Positions 11,058 to 24,717 of a stretch of 64,000 nucleotides of DNA are shown here, piece after piece. This DNA is from an uncultured Phycisphaerales bacterium (GTDB lineage: Bacteria > Planctomycetota > Phycisphaerae > Tepidisphaerales > Tepidisphaeraceae): positions 736,001 to 800,000 of the forward strand of contig CAWJPJ010000006.1 of assembly GCA_963844715.1 (NCBI GenBank), in the 5' to 3' direction. The number at the start of each line of letters is the position of its first letter. The first letter of the stretch is position 1. The position numbers and the translations under genes were made by a program. Under the pieces are notes generated by a model that was not told the origin of the DNA, made no database searches, and worked only from the letters and a program-made list of their open reading frames with translations.

Positions 11058-11889
11058 ATGCCCCGATACCGAAAATCCTTTCGTTCCGCCGACATCGAAT
11101 ATCTCGAGTCGCGCCTCCTCTTCACCTCGATCCCGCTCCCAGTAATCCCCACCGGCGCGGGCCATTTGTTCGTGGTTACCAGTTCACCGTACAACGCCGT
11201 GGGTGACGGGTCGACGGACGACACGGCCGCTATTCAGGCGGCCATCAATGCCTGCAACGCAGCCGGCGGAGGCACCGTCGAGATACCCGTCGTGACGGGC
11301 GCAAAGAATATCTACGAGTTCACCCAGCTCACGCTTGGCAGCAACACCAATTTCCAGATCGACGCCGGCGCGGAGTTGCAAGTGGAACCGCTGGGCGTCG
11401 AGCCCGGAGGAGTCGTTTGCATCGAGGCTTCCCAAGTAAGCAATTTAGAGATCACCGGCGGCGGGGATATCGACGGGAACGGCGGGTCCGGCTCGACGGC
11501 GCCTAGACCGACGGCTCCAGCACCTACCCCTCCGGCGATGGCAGCCCAAGCGGAGATTTCCTGTTCAGTTTCGACGTGTTGCCAGGTGACGTCAACCAAT
11601 CCGGCGGCGTCACCATTCAGGACGTCCTCAACGTCGTGAGCAAACAAGGCTCCAGCACAAGCACCCCGCCAATTATTCCATCTTCGACGACGTCAACGGT
11701 TCCGGCTCGATCACCATCCAGGACGTCCTGGCCACCAACAGCTTCGTCGGCTCGTCGTTGCCCGCCGGCACGCCTACCGAACCGACGATCGTCATTCAAA
11801 CGGCCAACCCCGTATTGCAATCCGCAACCTCCACCGCCCTTCTGAAGAAAAAACACCACATCGCGGATGCTCTTCTAGAAACCCATTGA
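11058..11889 (+). pseudogene. Internally deleted secreted GH28/pectate-lyase-fold protein joined to a dockerin-like C-terminal module
   Basis: LESRLLF motif, then AVGDGSTDDTAAIQAAINACNAAGGGTV up to ITGGGDIDGNG. It then jumps to another frame reading LDGA*TDGSSTYPSGDG...LPGDVNQSGGVTIQDV...DVNGSGSITIQDV, with an in-frame TAG. Confidence 0.7.
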
Positions 11890-11960
11890 AAAATCCCTCA
11901 ATCCGCCGAGAATGGCTTTTTCTGGGGCGATCGAAGGTCCAGAAAGGCCAGGAGTACGCC

Positions 11961-13231
11961 ATTAGCAAAACCGCCACCATCACCATCGACGGCAAGTCTT
12001 ATGAATTCCCGATCATCGTCGGCACCGAGGGGGAACAGGCCATCGACATTACCGACCTCCGCGCCAAAACCGGCCTGATCACCTTCGACCCGTCCTACGG
12101 AAACACCGGCTGCTGCACCAGTTCCATCACCTTCATCGACGGCGAAAAAGGAATCCTCCGCTATCGCGGCATCCCCATCGAAGAGCTGGCCGAAAAATCC
12201 ACCTTCATCGAAACCGCGCAGCTCCTGATCTTCGGAAAAATGCCCACCGAGGAGCAAATCCACCGCTTCAGCGAGCGGCTGACCCGAAACGCCCCGCTTC
12301 ACGAAGGTTTCAAGCACCACTTCGAGGCCTTCCCCGTCGACGCCCCGCCGATGGCGATGCTCTCGGCGATGATCAATTCCCTCTCCTGTTTCCATCAGCA
12401 GTTTATCAGAATCGAAGATGAGGACATGTTCGAGGAAATCGCCGCCCGCCTCATCAGCAAGGTGCGAACGATCGCGGCGTATTCCTATCGCATGTCCTGC
12501 GGCATGCCCTACATCTCGCCCGATCCAAAAATGAAATACGTCCCCAACTTCCTGCACATGATGTTTTCGCAGCCTTACGATCAGTATTTCGCCTCGCCGG
12601 AAGTGGATCGCGCCCTCAACCTGATTCTTCTCCTCCATGCCGATCACGAGCAGAATTGCTCGACCTCAACCGTTCGCGCCGTCGGCTCCAGCAAGGCGAA
12701 TCTGTTCGCCTCCATCGCCGCCGGCGTCAACGCCCTCTGGGGCCCGCTGCACGGCGGCGCCAACGTCGCCGTTTTGGAAATGCTCGAGCAAATTCAATCC
12801 GGCAGAATCAAGCCGCAGGATTATGTCCGCCTCGCCAAAGACAAGGGGAGCGGAATTCGATTGATGGGATTCGGACACCGCATTTATCGAAATTTCGACC
12901 CGCGCGCAAAATCCTGAAGAACGCCGCGGAAAAAGTGCTGGCGCAACTCAAAGTTTCCGATCCGCTTCTGGAAATCGCCCAGGAATTGGAAGCAATGGCA
13001 CAAAGCGACCCCTATTTCATCGAGCGAAAGCTTTATCCCAACGTCGATTTTTACAGCGGAATCATCATGAAGGCGATCGGACTCCCGGTGAATATGTTCA
13101 CCGTCATGTTCGCGATGGGGAGAATGCCCGGCTGGATCGCGCAGTGGAAAGAACAACACGATGATCCAACGACGCGAATCGCCCGCCCGCGGCAAATTTA
13201 TGTGGGGCCGACGAAACAAACTTTGAGTTAA
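11961..13231 (+). CDS. gltA: Citrate synthase (frameshift ~12910; apparent ATT start)
   Basis: [52 protein letters not shown] and RPRQIY motifs. Confidence 0.95.
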
Positions 13232-13288: not shown

Positions 13289-14513
13289 ATGAAGGGATTT
13301 GCCTTGAAAATAATCCCCCTGCTTCTGGCTCTCCTTTGCTTTCCTGTCTTCGCTTGGGCCGATGCGCCGGTGAATCCTTCGGATAATCTGGCGGGTGATA
13401 TGAATCGATTTGCGTTTGATCTTTATCCTAAAACGGGTGATCCGAATGCGAATCTCATCTTCAGCCCTTACAGCATTCATCTCGCCCTGGATATCGTCGT
13501 GGCGGGCGCACGCGGCGATACGCTTTCGCAAATGCAATCGGTGCTGCATTTATCCGCAAACGATGCAACGCTTGCGTCGGCGGCGGGAAAATTGATGGAC
13601 TCTCTCCAATCGTCCGGCGAATCCGGGCCGATTGTGAAAATCGCCAACGCGCTCTGGTCGCAACTCGGGGTGAACTGGAACGCCGCTTACTTCGATTCGG
13701 TGCAGAAAGACTACCGGGCGAAACTCGCGTCCCTCGACTTCAATGACACGGAGGCGGCGCAAGACCATCAACGATTGGGTGGCTGCTCAAACGAACGACA
13801 AGATTCAAAATCTACTCGGCAAGGGCTCGATTCAGCCGCATGTTACCAAGCTGATCATCACCAATGCGGTGTATTTCAAAGGGGATTGGCTCCTGCCTTT
13901 TGACGCGAACCATACTTCGAATTTTCCGTTCCATGTGCGGGGCGCGGCGGAAACGACGCCGGCGGCGACCATGCACCAAACGGCGCAGGTGGGGTATATG
14001 GAGAACGATTCGTTCCAGGCGATCGAGTTGCCGTATGCGCATTCGAATCTCGCGATGCTGATCGTGCTGCCGAAGGCAACTGATGGATTCCCTGCCGTGG
14101 AGGCGCATCTTGATACGGATTTGCTAGGGACGATCGATAAGGGACTGGGGAACGATCGGGTGGCGATTGCGCTGCCGAAGTTCAAGTTCGCGGCGTCGCT
14201 GGACCTGGCGCAGCCGCTGACGGAGCTGGGGATGAAAGCCGCGTTTGATCCCTCGGCCGCGGACTTCTCCGGCATGGATAACCAGCGCGATCTGTATGTG
14301 TCAGGCGTGGTGCATCAGGCGTATGTGGCGGTGGATGAGAAAGGAACGGAGGCGGCAGCCGCGACGGGGATCATGGTGGGAGCGACGGCGATCATCATGC
14401 CGCCGCCGCAGGAGTTCAGGGCGGATCACCCCTTTATCTTCGCTATACGCGATAAGCAGACTGGGGCGATCATGTTCCTAGGCAGGGTTGTAGACCCCGC
14501 TAGCGGGGAATGA
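13289..14513 (+). CDS. Secreted serpin (serine protease inhibitor), frameshift ~13760
   Basis: Signal peptide, NLIFSPYSI, NAVYFKGDW, hinge DEKGTEAAAAT and FRADHPFIFAIRD. Confidence 0.93.
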
Positions 14514-15017: not shown

Positions 15018-16715
15018 ATGGAATTGGACAAAATCTATAATAAGGATTGTGTTTCGGGGATGTCGCGGCTGGCGGCGGGAAGCGTGGATCTCGCCTTTGC
15101 CGATCCTCCGTTCAATATCGGGTACAAATACGACGTTTATGAGGACCGTCTGGCGGCGGACAAATACTTGAATTGGACGAGGGAATGGGGCGCGGCACTC
15201 ATTCACGCGCTCAAGCCGACGGGAACTTTCTGGCTTGCGATCGGGGACGATTTCGCGGCCGAATTAAAGTTGCTGTTCCAGCGCGACTTGGGGCTTGTCT
15301 GTCGTAGCTGGATCATTTGGTATTACACGTTTGGCGTAAACTGCAGGCAGAAGTTCAGCCGCAGCCACACGCACCTCTTCCATTTTGTTAAGAACGCGAA
15401 GGAATTCACGTTCAATGTGGATGCGATTCGAGTGCCGTCGGCGCGGCAATTGGTATATGGAGACGCGCGGGCTCATTCGAAAGGGCGGCTTCCGGACGAC
15501 ACTTGGATTCTTCGTCCCCAGGATGCAGCGGAAAGCTTTTCGCCTGAGGAGGACGTTTGGTACGTTCCACGCGTATGCGGCACATTCAAGGAACGTGCCG
15601 GATGGCACGGTTGTCAGATGCCTGAGCAGTTGCTGGGGCGCATCATTCGGGCGTGTTCAAATGCTGGGGAAACGGTGCTGGACCCGTTCGGGGGGAGCGG
15701 AACGACTCTGGCGGTGGCCAAGAAGTTGGGGCGTCGATTCATCGGATTTGAGTTGTCGAAAAGTTACTCGCGGCAGATCGAAATACGGTTAAAAGGCGCG
15801 AAATTCGGTGATGCCTTGCTGGGCGCGGAAGAACCGAAAGTGGTTCCCGGCCTCGCACGAGTGCGCAAGAGCGAAGAAAAGGCCACGCAAGCGCCGGATT
15901 TAAAGCCGCTGACGAAACGATCCAACGCCGAAGAGGTTAACCGCGGGATTATGGAGGCATTTTTTTCCACGCGGCAGGGCTTTCCCGTCGATCGGGTAAT
16001 CGCCGATCCCGAGCTAAACGAGGAATTTGTGGGGATATGCGGGCGACTTGGTCTGCCTGGGAGGGCCTTCGATTGGAATCAGCGGCTGATGAACTTGCGT
16101 AAGGCCGGGCATTTGAAGGGCATCCCTCACTCGCTGCGCACGACGTTTCCGCTGGAGGACAGGCAGTTCTACCGTTACAAGTTTGCCTGCGAGATCGCGA
16201 TACAAACATTCGAGCAGGCGGGGAAGACGACGCTGGACCAGGTTTTGTGCGATCCCGAAATGGCCCGTGACTTTGATCAATACGTTCGCAAGATGCTCCC
16301 CGACCCAGACCAACCTACTTCCCTGATGATACGGTGGTTCGCACTGCGAATTCGCAAGGCGGCGCACCAGATTTCCCAGGCGTCAGCCAAACTCGGAAGC
16401 GTTATCGAGATTTCCCGCGATAGGGAGAATCCGTTCTCGTTGAATTGCTCAAAAGTGCCGGAGTCGCCGGGTTTGTATTGGTTGCACGATAAGAGCAACC
16501 ACCTGTATGTGGGTGAGACGGATAATCTTCGCGAGCGAATGGAGATTCAATTCGGGCACAAGAAATTCGATTTCTGGAAAGCTTCGCTCGGCGAGTTGCA
16601 AGTGGCCTATAAAACGGTGGATGTCCCGGACGGCGTTCTTCCGCGACATCAATCTCGTTGGATCTCCAGTTGGAGCCCCATTGGAAACTACGCGAAGCTG
16701 GCAGCGTCGAAATGA
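15018..16715 (+). CDS. Beta-class N4/N6 DNA methyltransferase fused to a duplicated helical domain and a C-terminal GIY-YIG-like domain
   Basis: DPPF (motif IV) precedes DPFGGSGTT (motif I), with HGCQMPEQLL between them. C-terminus reads PGLYWLHDKSNHLYVGETDNLRER. Confidence 0.9.
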   Translation: MELDKIYNKDCVSGMSRLAAGSVDLAFADPPFNIGYKYDVYEDRLAADKYLNWTREWGAALIHALKPTGTFWLAIGDDFAAELKLLFQRDLGLVCRSWIIWYYTFGVNCRQKFSRSHTHLFHFVKNAKEFTFNVDAIRVPSARQLVYGDARAHSKGRLPDDTWILRPQDAAESFSPEEDVWYVPRVCGTFKERAGWHGCQMPEQLLGRIIRACSNAGETVLDPFGGSGTTLAVAKKLGRRFIGFELSKSYSRQIEIRLKGAKFGDALLGAEEPKVVPGLARVRKSEEKATQAPDLKPLTKRSNAEEVNRGIMEAFFSTRQGFPVDRVIADPELNEEFVGICGRLGLPGRAFDWNQRLMNLRKAGHLKGIPHSLRTTFPLEDRQFYRYKFACEIAIQTFEQAGKTTLDQVLCDPEMARDFDQYVRKMLPDPDQPTSLMIRWFALRIRKAAHQISQASAKLGSVIEISRDRENPFSLNCSKVPESPGLYWLHDKSNHLYVGETDNLRERMEIQFGHKKFDFWKASLGELQVAYKTVDVPDGVLPRHQSRWISSWSPIGNYAKLAASK

Positions 16716-17495
16716 AGGACGACCCGGTGAAGGTGGCGTTTCAGGAGATTCGAGAAGGTCGATCTCCCGAATTTGTGATCTGCGATCCAGCATTCAACGA
16801 ACGATTTCTCGCGGCAAGCCGGCGCACTGGGGGTGGGAGGAAGTGACGGGGAAATCAATACGTGATTGCTCAATCTGCGCAAGCGGAACAAACTGAAAGA
16901 TTGTCGAACGACTTATCGCAAGAAGACCGATTCCAATCGCCGCCACTATCTGAATCTGGTTTCGAACGTAATTCGGTTGGTCGAGAGGCAGTTCGGGAAA
17001 ACCGTCGACAACGTCATTTGCGATCCCGAGATGAGATCGCAGTTTGACGCGATGATCAAGTTCTTAAGTCCCAGCGCTTCACCTTTCGAAGCTGAATATA
17101 CGGCACTTAGTCTACGGAAAACCAATCGGCTTAAGCCCGAGCCAGTGGGACAAATCATTGGCGCGGTGACCAGCAACATCGTCGGTTTGGCGGATTTGGA
17201 ACCCCGACTAATTGAGGTTCCGAAGAATCCCGGCGTATACGTATTTTTCGACGAGGACACCACCTTTTACATCGGAAAAGCGGACGATTTGAAGCGGAGG
17301 ATAGGCGGCCATATCTCGTCCTGGACCTATCGAGAGATGATCCATCAGATTCGCAAGAAGCTCAGGCCCGACGCCTTTGTCGCATACCACGAGCTTCCCG
17401 TAACAATCTCGCCCAGAGAGTTGGCTGCATATGAAACGGAACTGATTCGGTCCAGAAAGCCGCAACATAATCGCGCCGGCCGGCTTGGCGAATAA
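16712..17495 (+). CDS. GIY-YIG nuclease paralogous to the C-terminal half of the upstream MTase (frameshift ~16820 and in-frame TGA at 16863; possibly a pseudogene)
   Basis: ATGA overlap with the MTase stop. PGVYVFFDEDTTFYIGKADDLKRRI and AYETELIRSRKPQHN motifs. Two VICDP repeats and LNLRK match the MTase linker. Confidence 0.8.
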
Positions 17496-17506
17496 TTGGG
17501 GGACTT

Positions 17507-17863
17507 GTGAAAAGCATCGCGAAGAAATCGCTTGAGTTCACCAGCTTGTTTGAAGCAGAGCTTCTCGTTGGCCTTTTGCTTTGGAAATGGGGGCACCCTC
17601 TCGCAGGTGACGAAGAATTTGCCAACACCCTGCTGGAGGAGGCATCCATCGCGCTTCGAGAGGCAATGGCCGGGAAGCAACTCATTGAGTCCGTGCCGGC
17701 AAGCCAGTTGAATTTCGTCGCCGCGGTTTGGTATGCGGAACAGTGCGGGATAGAACGAGTGGATGAATCAAAAATGGTCGAGTCAAGGCGAGCCTGGCTC
17801 TCGGCGGTCCGACGTGCGTTGCCGTCTTGCTTCTGCGATCCGTCTGACCTTCCCCCTTCCTAA
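17507..17863 (+). CDS. Hypothetical protein (118 aa), third gene of the MTase/GIY-YIG operon
   Basis: GTG start 11 nt after the previous stop, preceded by GGGGA; same strand; plausible helical protein. Confidence 0.65.
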   Translation: MKSIAKKSLEFTSLFEAELLVGLLLWKWGHPLAGDEEFANTLLEEASIALREAMAGKQLIESVPASQLNFVAAVWYAEQCGIERVDESKMVESRRAWLSAVRRALPSCFCDPSDLPPS

Positions 17864-18042: not shown

Positions 18043-18209
18043 TAGAGCGGTTTGCGGCTCCACGTGGCGAGCCAGTTGGCCTCGGCTGCAACGGAGGCAA
18101 GGATGAGCGGCGAAGCGTATCAGAAAATCAGATACGTTGAGCCGCGAAGACGCGGCATCCGTTGCAGCCGTGGACAAATGGCCGCTACGCGGAGCCGCAA
18201 ACCGCTCTA
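18043..18209. mobile_element. 167-bp MITE-like hairpin element with TA termini
   Basis: TAGAGCGGTTTGCGGCTCC at the left end and its exact reverse complement GGAGCCGCAAACCGCTCTA at the right end. Imperfect pairing continues for ~55 bp, plus an inner GCGGC..CGTATC/GATACG..GCCGC stem. Confidence 0.75.
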
Positions 18210-18326: not shown

Positions 18327-19355
18327 TCAGTTCGTCCTAATCGCGGCGGCTCTGCGTCGGGCCAGGACTGCCGGGGCGGCGAGCAAGACAAGCGAAAGCG
18401 AGGTTGGTTCCGGAACGGTGACTTCAAAACTGTGGGTATCGCCGGTGGTGTCAAGGTACTGCCCCACCACGACGTTGCCGTCAATTCCCCCGAGGTAGGT
18501 GCCGCCAATCACTCCAGCCAATCCGCCGAGGAAGATGTCGCCCTCGGCGGGCAATGCCAACGGGTCGTCCACGGTGGTGAAGGTTCCGCCGTCGTCCAAA
18601 AAGCCGTGGACGCCGGCGGCGTCGAGATACGATCCGGTGATGGTGCTGCCGGATAGGCTAAAGACATTTGTATCCACGGCCGATGGAAAATCGATCGTGG
18701 TGTACGTCCCGGCGCTGATACTGTAGGCGAAGCCGTTGTGATACCCAAAATGAACAGACGTCGAATCGCCGAAATCTCCGACGGCGGTGTCGCCGGCGAC
18801 ACCGAGCAGTACGGTTCCCCTGTCCGGAGTAGCCGACGGATCGTCCACGGTGGTATAAACGCCGGTAAGAGAATCGTAGATAAATCCATGGTCGACGCCC
18901 GATTTATCGAAGTATGCACCAACGATGGTATTGCCGGAGACTCCCAGCGCCTCTGTGCCGCCAACCACCGCCGACGCAGGACCGGCAATCGGCGTATAAA
19001 TGCCGCTGGTAATGTTGTAACTGAAGGAGAATACGGAAGTATCTGGGAGCGAATAAAACCCGACCACGGTGTTGCCGGAAATGCCTATCGTGTACGTCGA
19101 TCCGCCGGTGCCTTCCGCCGGGTCATCCAGGGTGGTGTAGGTGCTGCCATTGTAGAGGAATCCATGTCCGATGTTGGAGGAATCGAGGTAGACCCCGCTC
19201 ACATAGCTGCCGCTGATGCCCTCGGCCAAGGTGCCTTGGCCATTGGCGGTACCGGCTGATGGGTCATCCAATTCGGTGAATGTAAACCCGGCGGCAGCCG
19301 GCCTGGGGAGGACCACCAAAAACGCCAACGAAAGCAGAAAGATGAGTTTTCGCAT
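18327..19355 (-). CDS. PEP-CTERM protein with short beta repeats (HGF..Y...YTTLDDP)
   Basis: Signal peptide; C-terminus VPEPTSLSLVLLAAPAVLARRR. Confidence 0.9.
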   Translation of the reverse strand: MRKLIFLLSLAFLVVLPRPAAAGFTFTELDDPSAGTANGQGTLAEGISGSYVSGVYLDSSNIGHGFLYNGSTYTTLDDPAEGTGGSTYTIGISGNTVVGFYSLPDTSVFSFSYNITSGIYTPIAGPASAVVGGTEALGVSGNTIVGAYFDKSGVDHGFIYDSLTGVYTTVDDPSATPDRGTVLLGVAGDTAVGDFGDSTSVHFGYHNGFAYSISAGTYTTIDFPSAVDTNVFSLSGSTITGSYLDAAGVHGFLDDGGTFTTVDDPLALPAEGDIFLGGLAGVIGGTYLGGIDGNVVVGQYLDTTGDTHSFEVTVPEPTSLSLVLLAAPAVLARRRAAAIRTN

Positions 19356-19421: not shown

Positions 19422-20211
19422 CTAATGGTCCGCGTCGCCTTTAGTTCGTCCCCTCCGTCGCGCCAGGACTGCCGGGGCGGCGAGCAATACGAGGGAAAGC
19501 GTGGCCGGTTCCGGGACGGCGGTGGTCGTCACGCCCACGGTCGTGAAATCGACGGCCCAACCATCTCCACCGTTGCCGCCTTCGTCGATGGAGAGGGTCA
19601 AAACATTTGAAGGGCCCAAGGTCGAGGGCGAGATGCCAAGCGTGACGTATTGCACTATTGGCCCGGATTGGTCGAGCGACTCCAGCAAACTGGTTAACGC
19701 CGGAGGCGCTGGCGCCGTTGAGCGTTATGTTGAAGGGCTGTCCAAAAACGGGAAACTCAAAATTGTCGGCGGCAATACCAAGGGTCACGGTCTGAATCGT
19801 TGAATCGGCTGGCACAAGAGAACTGTAGTCCATGGTAATGACATCCGGCCCGCTGATTCGGTCAGGAGAGGACGAATATCCGTCATCGCTCGCGGTTTGG
19901 ACGCTGCCGACGTAGATTTGGTCGGTGCCGGGAAAATCACCAGGCGAGGGCGTAAAGGGAAAAGTATGCGCGTACGATTTCGTCGCCAGACTGCTGACGT
20001 TCGGCGCCAAACCGATTTTCGTGGCCCCGGCGGTCGGATCGTCGGTGCCATAGGCGCCGGTCCCGAGGGCATCTTCGGTGCCGTAGGTTTGTACGCCATC
20101 CGCATGAGCTACGGCAGGCCGCAATATCAAGGGAACGGCGGCGAGCAATAAACCCATCGCGGAAAGCGAAGAAAAGTTCAAAAACGAGAAGTTTTTTGAA
20201 ACGGCAAGCAT
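19422..20211 (-). CDS. PEP-CTERM protein (frameshift ~19690)
   Basis: Signal peptide ending AVAHA; C-terminus VPEPATLSLVLLAAPAVLARRR in ORF 19422-19688. Confidence 0.85.
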
Positions 20212-20763
20212 TATCTTCTCTCGAATCGAAGTGAAGATGATCTGCCGGAAATCAAAGCAACACGATTTCCACCGATCCGGCGTCGCATCACACTCCCGCC
20301 GGCAAGTTGCAATTTCCCTGCCCTTTCGCGTGTTTGGGAACGGGTATGTTCGGACGTGACAATACGAACATCGCGAGAAGGCTTGCAAGGAAATTTGCGC
20401 GGGTTTCAGCTGGAAAACACGTTAAATCTTGCGCGACTTCCTTGCTGCAACCGGTCATTTTGGGAGGCGCATAGTGTGAGCCGAGACGACCAAGGCGTGA
20501 TCTGTCGCAAGAGCCTCCAAGGATGGCGCAAACGATCACTCAACCACCTGGCAATTTAGGCAAGAAATTGGGGGGCGCGATCGCTCTCGGGTTGACCGCG
20601 CTATTCGTGTGGCTCAGTAGTAAAAGTTTTTTTTGTGGCCTGCGAGGTTCTCCTGATCGCGAAATTTATTGGAATCATAGCGCGGGGCTTGATCTTTCGG
20701 GGCTAGGATTTTGGCAGCATCTGGGGGGATCGGTTTTCATTTCGTGTAAGGAAGGAGCCTGTC

Positions 20764-22984: not shown

Positions 22985-23110
22985 CTTCGCGGGGATGTTC
23001 GCGGAAGAATTGTTCCTCAGCTTGATCCTCTCCGATACTGCGGAAGCCATCTGAGGAGATGGGGAGGAAATGGGCGTGTCGCGCGCAGTCGCAGGACTCC
23101 GCGCGAAATG

Positions 23111-23152
23111 CCCCTCACCTTGATCCTCTCCCCATGGGTACATGGGGAGAGG
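23111..23152. repeat. REP-like hairpin CCCCTCACC..CCTCTCCCCATG-N4-CATGGGGAGAGG (second copy 32817-32860)
   Basis: 12-bp perfect stem; a near-identical copy lies downstream of the PepSY-like gene. Confidence 0.8.
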
Positions 23153-23197
23153 AAAGTTGTGAGGGGTTCGACGTGGCGCGGTGCGGGCGGCGCAGGC

Positions 23198-24717
23198 TTA
23201 TGTCGCGCGGCGTTTGCGCGGGCGCTGGCGCCCAGGATTGTCGCGGCGCCGAGCATCAGGCCTAGGGACATCGGCTCGGGGACGACCGCCAGGGGCGGGG
23301 TATAGATGGGCGCGTTGTTGGGGGGCGTTACGAAATTGGTGTCGTCGGCCTCGTCGTTTTCGGTGTTGCCGCCGCTTTTGACGCCGGTTTCGTTGTTTTC
23401 CAGTTCGGCTCCGGCGACATCGACATTGTCCATATAGATGTCGTTGGCGTAGTACATTTTCCAGGGGCTTTCGGTTGAGCCGAAAGTGATATTTTCAAAA
23501 TTCAGGCCGGAGATATCGGGGGTGGCGGTGTTCAGGCCATAGATCTGGGCGGCGGAGCCCAGGGAATTGGTGCAGTTGATGTTTTCCATGGTGATATTTT
23601 TCCAGATCGGTTCGGTGGGCGTCGGGGTGTAGGCGGGGGCGGGGATACTGGGATAGTTATCGCTGCCATTGTTGTAATAGCTGTTGATGACCAGGACGTC
23701 GTCGACGTTGGTCATGGTGAAATTGTTGAAAGTGACGTTCTGGACGAGGCCGCCGTTTTCGTTGTTGGTGGTGTTTCCGTCGCCGGCTTTGAGGTGGATA
23801 CCGTTGGAGATTCTGCCGCTGCTGCCGGTGTTGGCGCCGGTTTCGGTGACGTTGTTGACGTACATGCCGTTGAGGCCGGCGTTGGTTTGGCCGCCGATGG
23901 AGATTCCGTGGCCGGCGGTGATGGTGATGTTTTCGATGTTGACGTTGGCGGTATAGGCGGTCATGCCGTTGACGACGGTGGTGTCGGGTTTGGCGCAGAT
24001 GTCATCGTCGCCGTCGGAGATGTTGCAGTTTTCGATGAGGAAATTGGTGCCGGAGAAGTCTATTCCGTCGGTGTTGGCCTGCGTTTTGAGGGGGTCCTGA
24101 ATGGTGACGTCGTTGATGGTGACGTTGTTGTCACACTCGGCGACGAGGTGTTCGTTGGGGGCGTTTTCGATGGTGATATCGTTGACCTCGATGTTGGTGA
24201 GGCCTTCGAGCTGGACCATTTTGTTGTTGGAGGTGCTGGTGGCGTTGCTGTTGAGGATTCCGCCGCCGCTGATTTCGACGTTACCCGTCGCTCCGACGGC
24301 GGAGGAGACGAAGGTGGCGGTGGTTGAGAAATTCTGCAGGGTGGCGCCGGTTTGGATGTCGAGGTTGACGTTGTTGCCGAGGAGAATTTCATCCGCGTCG
24401 TAGGTTCCCGTGGGAATGACGACGGTGCCGCCGCCGTGGGACGCGGCATAGGAGATGTAATCGTTGATGACGGTGGTGTTGTTGGTGGCGATGGTGCTGG
24501 TGGTGCCGACGACGAGGACGTTGGAGGTTCCGATGGAGGGATCGGAAACGTTGGCGTCGTAGACGGAGGAGCCGATGGTTGGGAGCGTGGGGACGGCGTA
24601 GGTTTGCGCGAAGGCGGCGCACGCCGTTCCGGCCGCGAGGATCGCGGGGAGGAGAAATTTCAGGTTTCGACTTCGTTTGGCGATGAGTTTTCGTTCGTGT
24701 CTGGATTGGATCAACAT
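23198..24717 (-). CDS. GH28 (polygalacturonase-like) PEP-CTERM protein, paralogue 1 (frameshift in the basic tail ~23230)
   Basis: NTDG, GDDD, GHG and HLK motifs; VPEPMSLGLMLGAATILG; the alternative frame gives RQRPRKRRAT*. Confidence 0.85.

Follow-up and report, generated by a model that had tools for sequence, protein, structure and literature searches.

In the type II restriction–modification systems Eco29kI and Hpy188I, a GIY-YIG endonuclease is encoded by its own gene beside that of the methylase, and Cfr42I is another type II system with a GIY-YIG endonuclease. Extra DNA-binding or nuclease domains can also be fused to a methylase, as in type IIG enzymes, which combine an active N-terminal nuclease with a gamma-class methylase, and in M.EcoRII and M.SsoII, whose repressor fusions belong to m5C enzymes. 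Orphan methylases such as Dam and the beta-class CcrM are single-copy genes found in more than half of a class, and orthologues in over 50% of a class serve as the mark of a lineage-conserved orphan methylase (PMC4752239). Ahi29725I and Apa233I are described as wH-GIY-YIG type IV endonucleases wherein an HTH-type domain precedes GIY-YIG and beside which methylases are rare (PMC11037411).

Here we describe a three-gene cassette within a 64,000-nucleotide stretch of planctomycete DNA, hereafter called the window. Its closest named loci suggest that it belongs to the Phycisphaerae. Like Eco29kI and Hpy188I, its family has a separate GIY-YIG nuclease gene by a methylase and the same catalytic residues, and gene 1 bears the same substitution as the Eco29kI variant E142Q. 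The cassette differs from these systems in the tandem HTH-like N-terminus and UvrC-like core of its nuclease, in the paralogue of that nuclease, predicted to be dead, on its methylase, in its third gene, and in the lineage-wide distribution of the methylase. It shares with type IIG enzymes, M.EcoRII, and M.SsoII the fusion of a methylase to an additional DNA-binding or nuclease domain, but M.EcoRII and M.SsoII lack a nuclease paralogue. The order of an HTH-type domain and GIY-YIG is that of Ahi29725I and Apa233I; those enzymes differ in having a single winged helix and rarely a methylase next to them, whereas the cassette has two helical repeats modeled without wings and a methylase that is nearly always adjacent or fused. 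In contrast to CcrM and Dam, the cassette family has armed forms, with a pseudo-nuclease and a cognate nuclease, beside the bare form.

Organization of the cassette

The sequence confirms that the three genes (Table 1) are as tightly coupled as the earlier note had stated, with an ATGA overlap of genes 1 and 2 at 16712-16715 and a gap of 11 nt (17496-17506) between genes 2 and 3. The block had also been described as less GC-rich than its neighbors and as flanked by palindromes. Its GC content is indeed lower (54.5% versus 59.2% for the window), but the dip is modest and other nearby bins are equally low. The palindromes are present, but on both flanks they prove to be dispersed repeats of the host genome: the long copies of the downstream hairpin are 90-100% identical, and the 21-nt core of the upstream palindrome has seven matches in the genome at two or fewer mismatches.

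Table 1. Coordinates of the cassette and a neighboring repeat, numbered from the first nucleotide of the window.
Feature	Position	Strand	Remarks
Gene 1	15018-16715	+	565 aa; methyltransferase core and tail of ~300 residues
Gene 1, beta-class amino-methyltransferase core	15018..15812	+	PF01555; DPPF first, SAM-binding DPFGGSGT last
Gene 1, two tandem helical repeats	15930..16380 (approximate bounds)	+	Predicted HTH/trihelix-like DNA-binding pair; paralogous to gene-2 repeats; fold from gene-2 model
Gene 1, UvrC-like GIY-YIG domain, predicted inactive	16420..16715	+	Gln545 at the Glu76 site
Gene 2, HTH-HTH-GIY-YIG nuclease gene	16712..17495	+	~260 codons; full catalytic set; nonsense codon 16863-16865
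Gene 3	17507..17863	+	GTG start; 118-aa acidic all-helical protein; 280 homologues
Dispersed 167-nt hairpin repeat, MITE-like	18043..18209		Neighbor of the cassette; 6 long copies in the genome, itself included

Other features of the surrounding DNA deserve mention. A serpin gene with a signal peptide (13289-14513) is split by an assembly error, and two short-read contigs from two runs restore the two missing bases at 13756. A citrate synthase-like gene, named by eye (11886-13231), lies in two frames, probably because of another assembly error. Three minus-strand genes (18327-19355, 19441-20388, and 23017-24717) encode secreted proteins whose C-terminal sorting motifs, VPEP or the like, appear PEP-CTERM-like by eye, and a 67-nt repeat recurs at the 3′ ends of two of these genes.

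The methylase core is a lineage-wide gene

The assignment of gene 1 as an extended beta-class amino-methyltransferase is well founded. PF01555 matches residues 23-254 (E 2.7e-49; 168.6 bits against a Pfam cut-off of 26.7), and DPPF at residues 28-31 (motif IV) precedes DPFGGSGT at residues 222-229 (motif I), which is the order that defines the beta class. The closest solved relatives of the core are M.MboIIA and CcrM, and the NCBIfam CcrM model scores 105 against its cut-off of 830; no NCBIfam model matches any part of the cassette above cut-off.

At E<=1e-60, the core is present in 172 of 201 genomes of the class to which the window belongs and in 187 of 201 genomes of a second planctomycete class, nearly always once, and it therefore exceeds in both classes the 50% by which a lineage-conserved orphan methylase is recognized. 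By comparison, just 40 of 401 genomes in an even sample of the phylum have it. The cassette methylase is the sole copy of the core in several genomes. The host genome itself encodes a second, short methylase (G000:C7:42354-43145, locus L024) that is 52% identical to gene 1. Because most resident methylases are open frames of ~300-400 aa that lack the tail module, the module appears unneeded for methylation. The methylase core is thus a lineage-wide, nearly always single-copy gene rather than a rare defense gene.

The GIY-YIG domain fused to the methylase is predicted to be inactive

The tail of gene 1 and the protein from gene 2 are paralogous over 250 columns in a profile comparison (probability 100), as expected from the observation that both contain the same repeats followed by GIY-YIG. 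Pfam detects the GIY-YIG domain of gene 1 only weakly (E 0.027). In the profile alignment, Glu76 of UvrC corresponds to Glu241 of gene 2 and to Gln545 of gene 1; the gene-1 domain also has Gln511 at the His/Tyr43 site, and it retains Tyr487, Tyr497, Gly499, Arg507, and Asn557. Judged by alignment column, the metal-binding Glu is found in none of 191 methylase-fused copies, some of them on partial methylases, and Gln takes its place in 172. The same substitution in Eco29kI, E142Q, gives according to PDB titles an inactive variant that served to demonstrate binding to DNA. By contrast, every one of the 48 adjacent gene-2 copies and of the 45 gene-2 homologues has the complete Tyr/Arg/His/Glu/Asn set by alignment column. 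A check by position passes 47 of the 48 adjacent copies, the failing one being frameshifted, and the two methods together thus give 92-93 of 93.

The C-terminus of gene 1 thus lacks the metal-binding Glu of an active GIY-YIG domain, and because of this Glu-to-Gln change we predict that the fused domain is inactive and that gene 1 is not an active methylase–nuclease. Across 33 paired loci, the HTH pair is conserved to a similar extent in the fused copy (46%) and in gene 2 (48%), whereas conservation of GIY-YIG is relaxed in the fused copy (29% versus 52%). In a FastTree phylogeny of 214 module representatives rooted at the midpoint, the fused copies group in a clade of 124 tips (local support 0.84) and the gene-2 copies in a second of 42 tips (0.975), and therefore the split is old.

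Gene 2 belongs to a family of predicted nucleases

Gene 2 has 56 close relatives, and members of its family possess the Tyr, Tyr, Arg, His/Tyr, Glu, and Asn residues of GIY-YIG nucleases together with the fold. In a model of an orthologue (pLDDT 92), the GIY domain is closest to the N-terminal nickase domain of UvrC (Z 9.2, rmsd 2.5, 86 residues aligned), and the match to Eco29kI is lower (Z 6.7).

The reading frame of gene 2 in the window is broken twice, by a frameshift at 16826 and by a TGA at 16863-16865. One short-read contig, with a depth of 6.6 and possibly from the source sample, spans 15813-17148; it has one base fewer at 16826 and is otherwise identical, TGA included. We therefore regard the frameshift as an assembly error and the TGA as real, such that gene 2 of the host strain likely carries one true nonsense codon, at codon 51 of ~260. 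The codon directly after it is TTG. Intact orthologues of 262-266 aa occur at loci L016, L017, and L019. Selenocysteine insertion at the TGA was considered and rejected, since no tRNA-Sec was found in the 85% complete genome and the alignment column is variable.

Six N-terminally extended forms, most of them signal-peptide-like, nest within the gene-2 clade. Signal-peptide-like N-termini with intact active sites were seen at L183:3793-4761, L185:4368-5321, L186:3805-4680, and L201:4049-5140 and in P0261 and P0271, and P0261 also has ankyrin and PQQ-propeller domains. No methylase was found among the neighbors of the four extended forms that have genomic context. The signal-peptide-like forms are possibly exported nucleases.

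The helical repeats resemble helix-turn-helix domains

The internal duplication noted previously exceeds chance in both proteins; it is strong in gene 2, where the two copies match with a probability of 97%, but weaker in gene 1 (40%, E 3e-4). Residues 70-141 of the gene-2 model align with GT-1 (Z 6.0, rmsd 3.2, 63 residues aligned) and Zeste (Z 5.6), and in general the repeat resembles HTH, Myb, trihelix, and wH domains at Z 5-6 without a clear winner, middling scores that may reflect a common arrangement of helices. The model has no wing strands. No Pfam family matches the repeat, and the ESM Atlas returned nothing beyond unnamed, mostly Planctomycetota clusters at 0.77. The modules of genes 1 and 2 are basic (median net charge +9 and +7, respectively). 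This charge, in combination with the trihelix/Myb-type likeness, favors the suggestion that the repeat is a DNA-binding module, and we predict from the model that the pair forms helix-turn-helix-like DNA-binding domains. Candidate recognition helices are alike even beside unrelated methylases, and the HTH pairs of genes 1 and 2 from the same locus do not covary (permutation p 0.33). For these two reasons, a sequence specificity shared by the partners is unsupported.

Gene 3 encodes a small acidic protein

Gene 3 proteins are acidic (median pI 4.6, net charge -9) and all-helical, with invariant residues E16, E18, H30, E44, E78, R94, and W97 and an invariant PSCFC motif. Fold searches gave no clear match (best Foldseek E 1.3; best VIA Z 5.8), the ESM Atlas offered no usable match, and no Pfam family is common to more than 2 of 71 members. 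Among 401 genomes of the phylum, gene 3 was found in three, including the host genome.

HNH-like ORFs of 156-158 aa follow gene 3 directly at L076:3590-4057, L083:970-1443, L086:6354-6821, and L087:1867-2340. They belong to one clade of four related cassettes that lack gene 2, and their matches to PF01844 (E 0.013-0.083) fall below the cut-off, with Arg, by eye, at the position expected for the first His.

Linkage and patchy occurrence of the partner genes

A metagenome scan with the gene-3 alignment yielded 102 confirmed stretches, of which 80 were kept; about six pairs among them represent the same sequence in two assemblies. Directly upstream of gene 3 lies gene 2 at 59 of the 80 loci, a fused gene 1 at nine, and a short methylase at two, and the remainder are at a contig edge (eight) or have a gene-2-like gene downstream instead (two). 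Hence gene 2 or gene 1 is the immediate upstream neighbor at 70 of 72 informative loci, and the linkage of the three genes holds beyond the window. The gene-1 tail has 218 relatives in proteins of 310-989 aa, and PF01555 is present on 120 of 120 of these among the matches listed. In the second class, the module occurs in 80 of 351 genomes, a tandem gene 2 in 14, and gene 3 in seven of those 14; related genomes and loci are not independent in this or any of the counts given here.

In an IQ-TREE phylogeny of 60 cores, rooted with distant methylases and weak at its deep nodes, short and fused-only methylases are nested among full cassettes, and the near-identical loci L138 and L140 differ in having gene 2. 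This pattern fits repeated loss of gene 2, gene 3, and the fusion, although repeated gain would also be possible. As the upstream neighbors of gene 3 show, the loss is asymmetric.

The module is also found elsewhere. Among 23 other module loci fetched from hit lists, 12 have a D12 methylase within two genes, two adjoin another beta methylase, one is fused to a gamma-type Eco57I-like fragment, and eight have no methylase among the neighbors scanned; accordingly, the module stands beside or on methylases of three classes at 15 of 23 loci. Among the 12 copies near a D12 methylase, the catalytic set is complete in only four. Modules fused to HicB or XRE-HTH domains include several with degenerate GIY motifs.

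Several loci (L187, L188, L191, L193, L196, L198, L199, and L020) present a parallel operon in which a 115-150 aa protein without a Pfam family is followed by the HTH-HTH-GIY module and a D12 methylase (e.g., L191:3732-5898). The module in such operons often has a HicB-like or other N-terminus and is often degenerate. At L189, a D12-type operon is near a phage portal gene. Small ORFs past the D12 methylase, L191:5901-6281 (-) and L196:2857-3207 (+), contain a single repeat by eye and are 55% identical to each other. The module is also seen behind DUF6575 and behind an XRE-type HTH (P0164, P0224, P0242, P0267; P0247).

Defense catalogs and genomic setting

PADLOC recognizes the type II methylase of the cassette and nothing else. 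Its UzuA, PDC-S14, and PD-Lambda-5 models gave no full-length match; their alignments cover just 30-50 residues of gene 2 (E 4e-4 to 0.015). Consistent with the earlier view of the architecture as undescribed, it is absent from the literature, PADLOC, NCBIfam, and Pfam as searched. The cassette was also absent from the viral contigs, phages, and plasmids searched, where one match to GIY alone was obtained. Nor does the cassette lie in defense islands, with PADLOC matches in just 4 of 140 cassette neighbors (140 of the 174 nearest ORFs were scanned). At the family level, the cassette has one defining trait of type II restriction–modification, a separate, linked endonuclease gene with an intact active site. 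It departs from type IIG in its beta-class methylase, its C-terminal nuclease domain, and the presence of Glu in 0 of 191 copies.

GCGC as a candidate target

The DPPF motif is compatible with m4C formation, as in M.BamHI. Among 136 four-mers, GCGC has the largest median drop when 10 related genomes with the methylase are compared with 10 in which it was not found, each sampled over ~40 kb or, in one case, 22 kb (-0.54 versus -0.20; one-sided p 0.032, two-sided 0.064). Two genomes without a detected methylase also avoid GCGC. Near cassettes that have gene 2, GCGC is less depleted (median -0.20, n=25) than near those lacking it (-0.69, n=11, and -0.42, n=8; p 0.024). Avoidance in the host genome is mild (ratio 0.90), and its k-mers reveal no informative target motif. 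According to three reports, GCGC methylation occurs in all Planctomycetota genomes examined in a 2026 preprint (10.64898/2026.06.24.734251), GCGC m4C found in a planctomycete matched no REBASE enzyme as of 2022 (PMC8919816), and an unmatched GcgC m4C signal was recorded in P. limnophilus with 17% detection (PMC4752239). The methylase, whose distribution fits, is a candidate writer of the planctomycete GCGC m4C mark.

Discussion

We tentatively favor a type II-like restriction–modification system in which a copy of the partner that does not cut lets the methylase bind host sites and protect them, a reading that we consider possible rather than probable. The methylase would mark host sites, possibly as GCG-m4C, and gene 2 would bind DNA through its HTH pair and nick or cut DNA that is unmarked. 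The fused copy may bind sites of this kind but leave them uncut, which would keep the methylase in place and protect the sites until they are methylated, and the acidic gene 3 protein could damp one of the basic DNA-binding surfaces. A costly nuclease of this kind might be lost repeatedly, as the stop codon in the host strain would exemplify, so that a domesticated methylase remains across the lineage. All the activities named here, from methylation and cutting to DNA binding by the HTH pair, protection by the dead copy, and the damping role of gene 3, are ones that we infer. We prefer this reading because the nuclease is always the dispensable part, because the module accompanies methylases of three classes, and because HNH-like ORFs, albeit weak matches, follow gene 3 at four loci that lack gene 2. 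Our preference is restrained because shared specificity went undetected, because the neighbors are not defense genes, and because methylation-coupled nicking accounts for the UvrC-like core and the housekeeping methylase about half as well.

In that last alternative, which we judge unlikely, the HTH pair senses the methylation state and gene 2 nicks those sites of a housekeeping methylase that are hemimethylated or mismatched, in the manner of Dam-MutH or Dcm-Vsr repair or strand marking. A near-universal, single-copy methylase, a GIY domain nearer the UvrC nickase (Z 9.2) than Eco29kI (Z 6.7), the housekeeping character of cassette neighborhoods, and a module that follows methylases of three classes are all in keeping with it, but a core repair gene should not be as patchy (14 of 351 genomes in one class) or as often lost as gene 2, and no SOS-like or operator dyad was found upstream. 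The start/stop overlaps, indicative of translational coupling, the Gln conserved in 172 of 191 fused copies, and the loss of the nuclease before other parts would also suit a guard or toxin–antitoxin arrangement, in which the dead copy or gene 3 silences the nuclease until a phage removes or blocks the methylase and frees it to kill the cell. We give this less credence still, given that the Gln module persists in many fused copies that have no adjacent gene 2 and that 7 of 14 genomes with gene 2 lack gene 3.

It is improbable that the dead module is an autoregulator, as in M.EcoRII and M.SsoII, with gene 2 as an ordinary cognate endonuclease. Methylases with a fused repressor domain offer a precedent (PMC12707154), and HicB or XRE-HTH fusions occur among related modules, several of which have a degenerate GIY motif. 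However, no conserved operator emerged from 54 upstream regions compared with 153 controls: a search of 938 words gave nothing convincing, the best, ATGCAA (p 3e-5), being equally frequent in short forms, and fused (18/44) and short (3/10) forms have a comparable weak excess of GAACA. Least credible to us is a modification-dependent type IV nuclease of the wH-GIY-YIG kind that cuts foreign methylated DNA and whose link to the methylase is secondary. Ahi29725I and Apa233I likewise join an HTH-like domain to GIY-YIG, but methylases are reported to be rare beside those enzymes (PMC11037411) and adjacency is the rule in the cassette; moreover, the repeat model lacks wing strands, and the dead copy on the methylase would be left unexplained.

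Beyond the favored restriction–modification reading, we advance a broader proposal that is speculative and, taken whole, unlikely. The methylase would be the missing GCG-m4C writer, and HTH-HTH-GIY-YIG would be a new reader of methylation state employed with beta, alpha, and gamma methylases alike; on the writer it would be disarmed and maintain the mark, and next door it would be armed against unmarked or half-marked DNA. If this were true, the family would be a living series that leads from a restriction system to a housekeeping epigenetic enzyme. The cassette offers a testable candidate enzyme for an unassigned, lineage-wide bacterial methylation mark, and a methylase that bears a paralogue of its partner nuclease, disarmed by nature, is new within the libraries and literature searched. 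Two protein families without a Pfam model, the HTH-like repeat and gene 3, are hereby defined. Because armed, half-armed, and bare forms coexist, the origin of orphan methylases from restriction systems becomes directly testable.
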